This document shows positions 11,193 through 54,990 of a stretch of DNA of 64,000 nt, one piece after another. Origin of the DNA: Octopus vulgaris. Its lineage: Eukaryota. The stretch is from positions 43,710,001-43,774,000 of the forward strand of contig OX597833.1 of NCBI GenBank assembly GCA_951406725.2, given 5' to 3'. The position numbers and the translations under genes are program-made. The stretch's first letter is position 1; each line of letters starts with the position of its first letter. The notes under the pieces were generated by a model. That model had not been told where the DNA came from. It worked only from the letters and a program-made list of their open reading frames with translations, and did no database searches.

Positions 11193-11740
11193 AAAGGATA
11201 AGCAAGTTAGGCAGGTTGATATGCAAAGTATATTGAATACATGAAATACAAAAAATGTATATGTTTACATACAAAAAGGCCCGGCTTACACAGAATGGAA
11301 ACGATATCAAGAATTAAAAGGATTGAAGAAAGATATTACAAATTCTACAGCTGTTTCTGGGGGCTCAGTAGTCCAAAAAAATGTTTGTAAATTGATTCCA
11401 TCATTGATGAGATGAGCCTCTGTCTTCAGAGAGGAGATCTTGATAGATTCCATCTTTGAACTTCATTCTGTCAACACCACAAATCTAAGATCTTTTCCTT
11501 GAAGACAGAGGCTCATCTCATCTGACGATGAAATTCATTTACAAGCTTCATCCGGAACAACCGGGCCCCCAGAAACAGCTATTGGACTTTATAATATTTT
11601 TCCTCAACACCTTTAATTCTTGGTATCATTTGTATTCTATGTAAGTTGGTTGTTTTTGTATATAAACATATACATTTTTTTATATTTCATGAATTTAATA
11701 TACTTTGTATATAAAGCTGCCTAACTTGCTTATCCTTACA
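11193..11740. repeat. Old diverged inverted repeat (~260-bp arms) with hammerhead-like motifs
   Basis: AAGGATAAGCAAGTTAGGCAG...GAGATGAGCCTCTGTCTTCA is mirrored by TGAAGACAGAGGCTCATCTC...CTGCCTAACTTGCTTATCCTT, with many substitutions. Confidence 0.85.
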
Positions 11741-11794
11741 TTTACTTATATATATATATATGTATATATATATATACACACACATACATACATA

Positions 11795-12130
11795 CACAAG
11801 GGGGTTCTCAAAAGAAAACAGAATTTTGCAAATATTGTTTTATTCAGTAATATGTTTACGCTTTTATCGCTTTCAAAGTATTCTCCATTTGAAGCAATGT
11901 AACGGTCCAGACACATTTTCCACTGTTCAAAGCTGCCCTGGAACTCTTGCAAAGTGATGCTTTTTAACATCTCCACCATTTTTTTTTATCTCTTCCACAT
12001 CTACAAATTCCATAACACCAAATTTCGTCACCAGTGATGATCTTTGGAAAAGGGTCTGGATCAACTTCCAGCTGTTCTTTCGGTTCACAACACACATTCA
12101 GTCATGACTCCTTTTGATGTGGGTCACAAT
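11795..12130 (-). mobile_element. mariner fragment
   Basis: LKSITLQEFQGSFEQWKMCLDRYIASNGEYFE is a mariner transposase C-terminus, next to a TIR-like end. Confidence 0.7.
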
Positions 12131-50854: not shown

Positions 50855-52963
50855 GGTGTGTGTGATTGTGTATAGAAGAATATATTAATAAAAAGAATTC
50901 CAACCTTGTCTGATTTTCACGTTTTATTTACAATCTTATAATGATATATTATAAGATAATATATTATAATTGAATAAAATAAAATGAAATAGTAGAATGT
51001 TAAATATTCATTCTGATTGAACTAGTACTTTCATGCATTGAATTCTGCAATCTTCGGGTTCATGTAGTAGTGTTGACAGTCATGCTTCACAATTTTTGAC
51101 TGTAGCAAGATGAGTGATTCTGTGCTATAAATACAGCTGGGTAGGCTCCAGAGTGCTAGGTTTTGCAAACTGTATTCTGACCAATCAGTGTGTAGTATCA
51201 CTCAATTACTTAAGCTGATTGGTTGGTTGAGCTGATTGGTTTAGGCATCACGCTTTGTTGGACAGGTCAAGAGTCCTGTATCTTGACCCTGGCCGAAGCA
51301 GCAATTGTTGGGTTATTTTTAGAAATGTTGTAAATATCCTTTGTCAGAGATTTTTATATTTTTATATTTCAATTGTCATCATCATCATTGTCAGCACCTT
51401 AATTATTGTTGCTAGTGGTGATGGTGGTGGCAATAGAACTTTTAACCCTAAATAAGATAATTTTCCTGCTATCTTCGTCTTGATCACCTTTAGTATTGTT
51501 GTTGTTGTTAGTGGTCATGGTCGTAGCAGTGGAAGTAATACCTCTAAGTATTATTATTATTGCTTATTTAGCTTGGGTTCGAATTTATCAATAAAATTCT
51601 TTTCTCTGATTTTCCTCTCGATTTCACTTGGGCTGTGTAATTTGTAGAATGGAAATATTATATATATTTTCCGACCACATGTTGCTAGGTGGTTACTCAA
51701 AGGTATCTGACGGACCTCTGGGTCTCTAATCTGTTGCCGGTGTACACGTGAGCGTTCTAATAGTGCGTTTCCCGTCTGACCTACATATATTTCTTCACAA
51801 TTTGGGCATTTGATGCAGTAAATTAAATTTCTGCTTTTGCAGTTCATATTCGCGTTTGTGAATATTTTCCCGGTTTTTGTGTTTATATATTGACCGGTAT
51901 GTATGAATTGGCATGTGCCACATCGGCTATCATTGCATTTAGATACCGTGAATGTTTGGTCTTTGTTGCTGAGGTCAAATTTTGCCTTTGTTAGTAATGT
52001 TTTCAAGTTTTTAGGCTGTCTTTTACTAAGCACCATAGCTCGATCCTTGATTATGTCTTTTAATTCATTACTTTGGGCAATGATTGGTAGGTTTGCTTTG
52101 GCAATGTTGAAGATATTCTGGTGACATGGGTTGTGTGTCACTATGAATGGTATGACTTGTTCTTGTTTTCCTCTTCCTTGGGTTGTCCTAAGTTGTTGTA
52201 TAGGTATTTTTATAGCCCGCTGTATGCCATTTTCTATAAGTAGAGATGGGTATTTTTGTTTGAGCAAAAATTCTCTTAGTTCTATTAGGCGTTTGTTCCT
52301 GATATTTGCATCTTCTACAATAGTACAAATTCTTCTGGCTAGGCAGTATGGGATGTTACGTTTTGTATGTGGTGGATGGCACGACTTAAAATTTAGGTAT
52401 TGATGTGTGTCTGTGTGTTTATAGTATATATCTGTGGTGATGGTGGTGTCTTTTTTAATTACCATTATATCCAGGAATGGTAATTTGGTACTACTCATCT
52501 CCTTTGTAAATTTGAGAGATGGGTGTAGGTTGTTCAGGAGGATATTGAACTCTTCCAGAGTATTTAGAGATTCTGTCCAGATTATGAAACAGTCGTCTAG
52601 GTATCTCTTCCATGCCTTTTCAATATACTTTCTAAATCCAGTGCCATAGTTTACCTCCACCTCTTGGTAGAGTTGTTCTTCTAAGTATCCCATTACAGAG
52701 TTGGCGTAAACGGGAGCAAACCTCGTTCCCATCGCCGTGCCTCTAATTTGGATGTAATTCTTTCCATTGAAGAAGAATGTGTTATTTTCTAGAATAAGTT
52801 TGACTGTGTCTAATATAAATGGCACTGTGAATCTGCTGGGAATCACTTCTCTATGTTTTTCTAACCAGTATTTAATCGCCTTTATTCCTAAATCGTGTGG
52901 AATATTGGTGTAGAGGCTTACCACATCAAAACTTAGCAAAACTGAATTTGTTTCTGTTGTTTT
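50855..52963 (-). mobile_element. Neptune-like PLE, 5'-truncated, open RT-GIY-YIG frame 51557-52939
   Basis: SFDVVSLYTNI, GTAMGT, WKRYLDD, linker CNDSRCGTC, NLIYCIKC..YVGQT..RSRVH. Confidence 0.95.
51018..51062 (-). ncRNA. Hammerhead ribozyme (U4C core) at the Neptune 3' end
   Basis: TGAAC-CCGAAGA-TTGCA(GAATTCAA)TGCAT-GAAA(GTAC)T-A|GTTCA. Confidence 0.7.
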
Positions 52964-54990
52964 GAAACCACTATGTACTTACATACCAAGTTTCATCAGG
53001 GATGACATCGACTTCCTGTCCCATCTTCCCAAAACAACAGAAACAAATTCAGTTTTGCTAAGTTTTGATGTGTAAGCCTCTACACCAATATTCCACACGA
53101 TTTAGGAATAAAGCGATTAAATACTGGTTAGAAAAACATAGAGAAGTGATTTCCAGCAGATTCACAGTGCCATTTATATTAGACACAGTCAAACTTATTC
53201 TAGAAAATAACACATTCTTCTTCAATGGAAAGAATTACATCCAAATTAGAGGCACGGCGATGGGAACGAGGTTTGCTCCCGTTTACGCCAACTCTGTAAT
53301 TGGATACTTAGAAGAACAACTCTACCAAGAGGTGGAGGTAAACTATGGCACTGGATTTAGAAAGTATATTGAAAAGGCATGGAAGAGATACCTAGACGAC
53401 TGTTTCATAATCTGGACAGAATCTCTAAATACTCTGGAAGAGTTCAATATCCTCCTGAACAACCTACACCCATCTCTCAAATTTACAAAGGAGATGAGTA
53501 GTACCAAATTACCATTCCTGGATATAATGGTAATTAAAAAGACACCACCATCACCACAGATATATACTATAAACACACAGACACACATCAATACCTAAAT
53601 TTTAAGTCGTGCCATCCACCACATACAAAACGTAACATCCCATACTGCCTAGCCAGAAGAATTTGTACTATTGTAGAAGATGCAAATATCAGGAACAAAC
53701 GCCTAATAGAACTAAGAGAATTTTTGCTCAAACAAAAATACCCATCTCTACTTATAGAAAATGGCATACAGCGGGCTATAAAAATACCTATACAACAACT
53801 TAGGACAACCCAAGGAAGAGGAAAACAAGAACAAGTCATACCATTCATAGTGACACACAACCCATGTCACCAGAATATCTTCAACATTGCCAAAGCAAAC
53901 CTTCCAATCATTGCCCAAAGTAATGAATTAAAAGACATAATCAAGGATCGAGCTATGGTGCTTAGTAAAAGACAGCCTAAAAACTTGAAAACATTACTAA
54001 CAAAGGCAAAATTTGACCTCAGCAACAAAGACCAAACATTCACGGTATCTAAATGCAATGATAGCCGATGTGGCACATGCCAATTCATACATACCGGTCA
54101 ATATATAAACACAAAAACCGGGAAAATATTCACAAACGCGAATATGAACTGCAAAAGCAGAAATTTAATTTACTGCATCAAATGCCCAAATTGTGAAGAA
54201 ATATATGTAGGTCAGACGGGGAAACGCACTATTAGAACGCTCACGTGTACACCGGCAACAGATTAGAGACCCAGAGGTCCGTCAGATACCTTTGAGTAAC
54301 CACCTAGCAACATGTGGTCGGAAAATATATATAATATTTCCATTCTACAAATTACACAGCCCAAGTGAAATCGAGAGGAAAATCAGAGAAAAGAATTTTA
54401 TTGATAAATTCGAACCCAAGCTAAATAAGCAATAATAATAATACTTAGAAGGTATTACTTCCACTGCTACGACCATGACCACTAACAACAACAACAATAC
54501 TAAAGGTGATCAAGACGAAGATACAGGAAAATTATCTTATTTAGGGTTAAAAGTTCTATTGCCACCACCATCACCACTAGCAACAATAATTAAGGTGCTG
54601 ACAATGATGATGATGACAATTGAAATATAAAAATATAAAAATCTCTGACAAAGGATATTTACAACATTTCTAAAAATAACCCAACAATTGCTGCTTCGGC
54701 CAGGGTCAAAATACAGGACTCTTGACCTGTCCAACAAAGCGTGATACTAAACCAATCAGCTCAACCAACCAATCAGCTTAAGTAATTGAGTGATACTACA
54801 CACTGATTGGTCAGAATACAGTTTGCAAAACCTAGCACTCTGGAGCCTACCCAGCTGTATTTATAGCACAGAATCACTCATCTTGCTACAGTCAAAAATT
54901 GTGAAGCATATAGTTCAATCAGAATGAATATTTAACATTCTACTATTTCATTTTATTTTATTCAATTATAATATATTATCTTATAATATA
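52964..54990 (+). mobile_element. Inverted second copy of the same Neptune-like PLE, frameshifted and lacking the hammerhead
   Basis: Reverse complement of ~50935-52963 plus ~65 extra 5' nt (KPLCTYIPSFIRDDIDFLSHLPK). It has several 1-bp indels and a ~57-nt deletion at ~54909. Confidence 0.95.

Follow-up and report, generated by a model that had tools for sequence, protein, structure and literature searches.

How do inverted repeats from unrelated families come to share one orientation and one (TA)n setting within a short piece of a genome? This question is raised by a 64,000-nt window (the whole stretch of DNA analysed here) of the 2.8-Gb genome of Octopus vulgaris (GCA_951406725.2, contig OX597833.1, positions 43,710,001 to 43,774,000, forward strand). 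A sequence-only reading had reported five inverted repeats and a short sixth in this window, and had offered foldback of a complementary DNA (cDNA) or priming on both strands of the (TA)n target as their common mechanism. Self-comparison of the window sequence located all six as claimed, and our analysis revealed that these foldbacks, numbered IR1 to IR6, are the 3' ends of six families of predicted Penelope-like elements (PLEs), placed head-to-head in (TA)n. They probably arise when one ribonucleoprotein (RNP) cleaves (TA)n on both strands and starts copying the same sense RNA at two places, with one start site for each strand, the two cDNAs stopping independently and being joined head-to-head. 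Foldbacks of this kind are likely ordinary endonuclease-positive PLE insertions, together with non-coding passengers, that result from double reverse transcription in a single event.

The strongest regularity concerns the outer ends of the two arms. Every family scored has two 3' end sites, both on AT-rich runs, and an arm that reaches the far site carries a tail which an arm ending at the near site lacks. In foldbacks outside the window, one outer end lay at the far site and the other at the near site in 111 of 113 cases (IR5 family 25/25, IR3 28/28, IR4 10/10, IR2 15/15, IR6 16/17, and 17/18 in a seventh family, that of locus L291), a count which leaves out three edge-cut IR4 loci, one locus with a degraded end (L183), two duplicates (L180 and L299) and the IR1 family. 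Non-inverted clusters of the IR5 family end at either site (64 tailed, 25 tail-less and 11 unlabelled), and independent choice of the site by each arm would therefore yield less than half discordant pairs.

Polarity is likewise fixed. Counting neighbours within 10 kb among the first 100 motif matches listed per family, we found 30 tail-out and 0 tail-in arrangements for the IR3 family, and 15 and 1, respectively, for the IR5 family. An arbitrary genome sample of 40 stretches of 10 kb (400 kb) showed a hammerhead-like motif in 8 of 86 inverted-repeat rows, pointing outward in all eight, and the tail-out polarity described for the window thus extends beyond it; random polarity was not seen. The same sample contained 22 TA-flanked hairpins, not all of them verified as PLE, which corresponds to 3.5 per 64 kb compared with four in the window under the identical rule. 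The foldback density of the window is ordinary and the pattern routine. Recurrence and a common mechanism across families are supported as well, and the arm identities of 77.3% (IR1), 97.8% (IR2), 99.6% (IR3), 95.8% (IR4) and 98.3% (IR5) bear out the claimed spread of arm ages. The inverted, truncated repeat at the 5' end, which had been given as a known PLE trait, is already published as the usual head-to-head insertion: for PLE inserts, a 5'-truncated copy lying inverted at the 5' end, a single-ended tail and a bias for (TA)n are described (PMC8557442), and head-to-head is given as their commonest insertion form (PMC3846280).

The two arms of a foldback share source alleles. Diagnostic sites of the IR3 family were concordant between arms in 25 of 26 and in 18 of 18 pairs, against an expected 0.54-0.56, and the arms of eight IR5 pairs share variants that are private to their locus, being absent from the other sampled loci. 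At five further loci (L107, L116, L302, L324 and L325) the tailed arm consists of the tail only and has no sequence in common with its partner. Of these five arms, four come to an end within 2-7 nt of the second start, as though a primer seated on the same RNA had blocked them. Together with the one-tail rule, shared alleles and tail-only arms support priming on both (TA)n strands, the second of the two routes originally offered.

Evidence on the template itself came from U6 small nuclear RNA (snRNA) fused to PLE sequence, first encountered as the 3' end of U6 in both arms of an IR6-family foldback. A U6 motif search gave 186 matches, and 91 loci, accounting for 93 of the first 100, were examined; Rfam confirms U6 in the loci bearing the motif. 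Eight of the 91 loci are PLE-type chimeras, while the other 83 are U6 genes, fusions to other repeats, or unassigned. The U6 junction lies at the predicted hammerhead cut in 7/7 chimeras testable against a homolog (within 1 nt in L377, and by way of a diverged homolog in L369; L376, without a homolog, was excluded). Six of the eight chimeras are foldbacks with an identical U6 junction in both arms, and two loci found with family queries, L196 and L318, raise the number of such foldbacks to eight; in L318 the tailed arm is the one with less U6. By analogy with U6/LINE-1 chimeras (PMC6789731), we infer that U6 was probably ligated to the 5'-OH product of the ribozyme before reverse transcription. 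Two echoes of the predicted cut are found in the window, namely the end of the IR6 left arm and the end of a 57-nt deletion in the IR5 right arm. The in vivo role of PLE ribozymes has been unclear to date, and U6 at the cut would provide a DNA record of cleavage in cells. As a separate observation, many U6 copies (L261-L290, L326-L385) are joined to other repeat families, and seven U6 copies are clustered in L268-L274.

In the mechanism we propose, a PLE protein, probably a dimer, would cut both strands of a (TA)n target, and each target 3' end would anneal to one or other of two AU-rich start sites close to the 3' repeat of the RNA. Lying 26-150 nt apart and each used once, the start sites would leave one arm tailed and the other tail-less. 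The cDNAs would stop independently, either at random, at the RNA 5' end or, in the case of the rear cDNA, at the front primer, and would be joined head-to-head via 1-3 nt of microhomology; the RNA would sometimes be a ribozyme-cut product previously ligated to U6. In vitro, an Anolis PLE protein, predicted to form a dimer, cuts and extends both strands and uses two adjacent start sites (PMC11167929). For such a system the mechanism predicts that each strand has its own single start site, that both arms derive from the same RNA, and that a rear reverse transcriptase (RT) stalls at the front primer. The formation of tandem and inverted PLE insertions has been called undefined (PMC8557442), hence the value of these foldbacks as a mechanistic clue.

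Several observations weigh against this reading. Two foldbacks break the one-tail rule, L178 being tailed and L308 tail-less at both ends. The loci are top or first-listed matches, mostly from the largest contigs; the IR4 query included the tail, 16 IR5 loci were chosen from end-type lists, and the U6 loci L332 and L333 share a central insert and probably have one origin, so that they are not independent. The arms of L201 differ at one diagnostic site and those of IR5 in the window at one family polymorphism. Shared alleles would equally fit two RNAs from one source locus, and a subsequent inversion between the arms could move the long arm to the other end. In addition, the available part of the Anolis report describes a protein without a strand difference in start site, a start site not homologous to the cut DNA, and no need for ribozyme cleavage (PMC11167929).

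The nearest alternative, which we consider rather unlikely, is that both target strands are primed, each from its own start, on two RNAs from one source locus held by the dimer. Such a pair of RNAs would account for the one-tail rule and for the few allele-discordant pairs (L201 and IR5 of the window), and would require no strand displacement where the arms overlap over long distances, the shared length reaching 3.7 kb. However, the same U6 junction in both arms of eight foldbacks from several families would need a transcribed chimeric source each time, and four tail-only arms stop at the second start, as expected with both primers on one RNA.

Lower still stands foldback of the first cDNA, which would copy itself and have its tailed end reshuffled by later inversion between the arms. 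This would account simply for the variants and U6 junctions that the arms share, and the tailed arm is the longer one in 10 of the 25 IR5 pairs as well as in the majority of U6 foldbacks. Yet foldback expects matching outer ends, and only 2 of 113 match. The tail-less arm extends farther 5' in 14 of the 25 IR5 pairs and in 6/6 window cases, so that neither arm can have been copied whole from the other; foldback would then require near-equilibrium flipping (14 vs 10) in a family that is about 99.8% identical. The five tail-only loci, which foldback is unable to produce, escape the inversion explanation because their tailed arm shares nothing with its partner. The window arms and these loci contradict simple cDNA foldback as put forward by the sequence-only reading. 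Nor are the hairpins in general symmetric, as it had described them: for the IR5 family, in the 15 pairs where an arm exceeds 500 nt, the two lengths show no correlation (rho 0.16) and differ by a median of 1338 nt. Two RTs moving together, which would give equal arms, were rejected because the long-arm lengths are uncorrelated.

The junctions between the arms show microhomology, with a mean overlap of 1.8 nt compared with 0.67 nt for random joins and zero overlap in 3 of 23 compared with 56% expected. They have no TA spacer, and most have an overlap of 0-3 nt and no palindrome. The 5' ends cluster by family (IR5 at 4022-4049 in 15 of 50 arms, IR2 at 923-930), and both arms of IR3 end at 148-150 in 10 of 20 loci. 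These clusters probably mark RNA 5' ends, which would account for the near-symmetric short hairpins. An antisense RNA that primes itself at a palindrome, the route suggested for Penelope elements of rotifers (PMC3846280), would give the head-to-head polarity, and six IR3 hairpins are indeed centred on a 4-nt palindrome; with most junctions lacking one, and with U6 attached in sense orientation at the ribozyme cut of the sense strand, which indicates a sense template, we regard this route as very improbable. A single amplified founder for the zero-gap IR3 hairpins was rejected, as two haplotypes are present. Least credible is an assembly or long-read foldback artefact, or a pile-up of independent insertions in one (TA)n array: the IR5 right arm does have 11 arm-only differences, mostly 1-nt indels, and (TA)n arrays are reused targets, but an artefact should mirror ends and flanks, whereas these differ in 111/113; the junctions are free of a TA spacer, polarity is 30:0, and old, diverged cases (77% arm identity) are present.

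Within the window, the positions given for the foldbacks stood, but their sizes did not, since one arm of each bears a family-specific tail that makes every insert bigger. Once the tail is counted in, both insert ends abut (TA)n, as had been claimed for the flanks, the left end of IR1 meeting a short TA run only. The corrected features are as follows.

IR1, 11106 to 11746, no single strand: old head-to-head PLE-type 3' ends.
IR1 left arm, minus strand: tail present, with the 3' half of a hammerhead.
IR1 right arm, plus strand: tail-less, extends farther 5', decayed ribozyme.
IR2 (22464 to 22905), left arm, 22464 to 22743, minus strand: PLE 3' end with half a hammerhead, family positions 1031-1310; its tail runs about 150 nt past the second start of the family.
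IR2 right arm, 22742 to 22905, plus strand: tail-less, complete type I hammerhead (core 22809, predicted cut after 22882), family positions 953-1116; the arms overlap by 2 nt.
IR3 (42271 to 43397), left arm, 42271 to 42566, minus strand: short, tail of about 68 nt, complete hammerhead.
IR3 right arm, 42566 to 43397, plus strand: long, tail-less, simple-repeat interior of the element, complete hammerhead at 43334-43372.
IR6 (44413 to 44549), left arm, 44413 to 44491, minus strand: tail-less, ends exactly at the predicted cut of a variant hammerhead-like motif.
IR6 right arm, 44510 to 44549, plus strand: short tail; about 17 foreign nt separate the arms.
(TA)n-rich array, 46793 to 50853, no strand: contains IR4 and adjoins IR5; a target used repeatedly.
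IR4, 49040 to 49471, no single strand: a pair of truncated ends from a 485-nt tandem unit (non-coding, retrozyme-like) with a type I hammerhead; left arm (minus) tail-less, right arm (plus) tailed, overlap 3 nt, each with only the 3' ribozyme half.
[quoted passage not shown]
IR5 right arm, 52957 to 54991, plus strand: begins 73 nt farther 5', 8-nt overlap, tail-less, with several indels of 1 nt; a 57-nt stretch is deleted, the deletion stopping at the predicted ribozyme cut.

What had been taken for a spacer in IR3 is element sequence belonging to the long arm. The 11 differences of the IR5 right arm are found nowhere else, and its sequence may contain consensus errors; no listed contig spans the IR5 centre or the 57-nt deletion, which is uninformative for a young insertion. 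The IR1 insertion exists in three copies within about 80 kb through local duplication (window 11106-11746, L152 and L153), and a fragment resembling a long interspersed nuclear element (LINE) is duplicated at 96% identity within the (TA)n nest (46494-46884 and 48639-49030).

A scan of the window with Rfam at the gathering threshold gave no match, and an E-value scan returned hairpin and microsatellite matches; hammerheads were then scored with a custom descriptor, which at a score of at least 13 gave three matches in the window and none in each of eight shuffles. The ribozymes assigned to IR1-IR5 are type I hammerheads with a palindromic stem III, whole or as the 3' half, and oriented outward. 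The claim that ribozyme 3' ends point outward holds for every hammerhead motif or half-motif assigned to a family. A whole ribozyme is present in only 4 of the 12 window arms (IR2 right, both of IR3, IR5 left), and in the other eight it is halved, decayed or deleted. For the sixth foldback, in which no ribozyme had been seen, the family does have a variant hammerhead-like motif upstream of the part that is kept in the window; this putative ribozyme combines the known U3-A8 core with a C in place of A13. In the IR1, IR2, IR3 and IR6 families the type I hammerhead (a variant in IR6) lies close to the 3' end, together with the two end sites.

Other hammerhead-bearing ends were also observed. A solo PLE-type end at 44991-45250 (plus strand) has a complete hammerhead (core 44995, cut after 45029) and a tail, and is related to a family having U6 chimeras. 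Further PLE-type family ends lie at 48505-48632, 55030-55290 and 59109-59365, where 55194 and 59269 mark half hammerheads; at 57224-58678 (minus strand), decayed pieces of ORF look PLE-like by eye but had no Pfam match. In the arbitrary sample, L221 (2098-4722) holds a head-to-head tandem array of a 359-nt hammerhead unit.

Judged by domain order, pseudo-long terminal repeat (pLTR) and inverted layout, and hammerhead, the IR5 family belongs to the endonuclease-positive PLEs. Pfam matches comprise RVT_1 (E 8.8e-6, under the curated cut-off) and GIY-YIG (over the cut-off), and 89 longer homologs have the identical domain set, RT followed by a C-terminal GIY-YIG. Copies form partial tandems that make up pLTRs, with an inverted 5'-truncated copy and a tail on one side, and the predicted type I hammerhead with palindromic stem III is located in the pLTR, its core one change from consensus. 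There are 1189 candidate copies, the best 40 being identical across 416 nt. In the reference element (L062/L063, positions 3-3566) the ORF is split across two frames of 443 and 775 amino acids; the 775-residue frame recurs in several long copies, and either an intron or a frameshift is possible. The translation contains a CX2-5CxxC motif upstream of GIY-YIG, plus CCHH, features described for Neptune/Nematis (PMC8557442). The reference element has its own (AT)7 run immediately after the tail, and solo copies (L035, L049, L062 and L065) show short local duplications at their 5' junctions, which suggests re-priming or slippage as the cDNA becomes attached to the target.

At least a thousand copies are present in the genome in each of five families. 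A longer copy of the IR2 family has an upstream GIY-YIG-like C-terminus, read by eye. The IR3 family gave 3536 exact matches of a 30-nt family motif, and one of its loci has an ORF fragment after the tail; in L209, a tandem unit of the IR3 family, the ribozyme base is fused to about 410 nt of ORF start, and several short hairpins have a G immediately before the ribozyme base, possibly derived from a cap or from splicing. Copies of the IR1 family share about 78-80% identity, and several of them have a complete type I hammerhead; no ORF was found in the loci examined of the IR1 and IR6 families. The IR4 family is a 485-nt non-coding unit in arrays of several copies, each with a well-formed type I hammerhead, and as a non-coding tandem-hammerhead unit would class as retrozyme-like without a long terminal repeat (non-LTR). 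A miniature inverted-repeat transposable element (MITE) or a DNA transposon with terminal inverted repeats (TIRs) was rejected for IR4 and IR6, as arm lengths vary and ends are unequal.

Elsewhere in the window lie a separate GIY-YIG fragment (23978-24385, minus strand) and a LINE remnant with endonuclease, RT and PHD-finger matches (26875-29622, minus strand), adjoined by a 339-nt tandem repeat at 25196-26186. An assembly gap of 100 N occupies 34837-34936, and a degenerate telomere-like hexamer repeat 39068-39139.

With about one TA-flanked hairpin per 18 kb, foldbacks of this type could feed double-stranded RNA (dsRNA) pathways. The predicted fold of IR4 has -270 kcal/mol, a trivial result in silico. 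As context only, an octopus has been reported to have high dsRNA-forming potential and a lizard heavy editing of Penelope (PMC5625713). Taken jointly, we lean towards a reading in which coupled double-priming (one RNP, one sense RNA and two fixed starts, one per strand) operates alongside PLE hammerheads, including the U3-A8 variants, that would cut in vivo and give 5'-OH products which, once ligated to U6, would be integrated; a foldback whose two arms both contain U6 and whose shorter arm bears the tail would then be a single-molecule record of this process, and such insertions may be a major source of near-perfect dsRNA for editing.

Among known systems, LINE-1 twin priming offers a geometric parallel: two target strands prime one RNA and produce an inverted junction with microhomology. 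The tail-only arms found here have exactly its non-overlapping geometry. Unlike in twin priming, both starts are fixed at the 3' repeat, and the arms usually overlap by hundreds to thousands of bases.

Published endonuclease-positive PLE insertions (PMC8557442, PMC3846280) agree with the present ones in the head-to-head layout, partial tandems, a single-ended tail, the (TA)n bias, absence of a readable target-site duplication, and possession of RT and GIY-YIG, while tails measure 26-150 nt here compared with 30-40 nt there. Here the single tail is counted as a near-strict rule (111/113) and the arms are shown to share source alleles; in those two papers the mechanism is left open or antisense self-priming is favoured. 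The present analysis adds the near-strict one-tail rule over six families, the arms made of tail alone, and the occurrence of U6 in each arm of a foldback; no published account of PLE double priming or of U6 at a PLE hammerhead cut was found in a search that left most subscription papers outside.

The Anolis Poseidon PLE (PMC11167929) is alike in that both strands are cut and extended, two adjacent internal starts define a tail, and a dimer is predicted. It differs in that, in the available part of the report, neither coupling of start to strand nor a head-to-head product is described; the starts are not homologous to the target, whereas those found here lie on AT-rich runs, and no Anolis reads fall at the ribozyme cut, which is marked by U6 junctions in the octopus.

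U6/LINE-1 chimeras, made by RtcB ligation (PMC6789731), likewise have U6, with about five U at its end, attached to retroelement RNA ahead of reverse transcription, but here the acceptor is a predicted PLE hammerhead product and a single insertion shows the chimera in its two arms. Metazoan non-LTR retrozymes (bioRxiv 10.64898/2026.07.22.740005), finally, resemble the IR4 family in that a non-coding unit is repeated in tandem, every copy having a type I hammerhead; as a difference, IR4-family insertions directly show the PLE footprint of head-to-head arms with a single tail.

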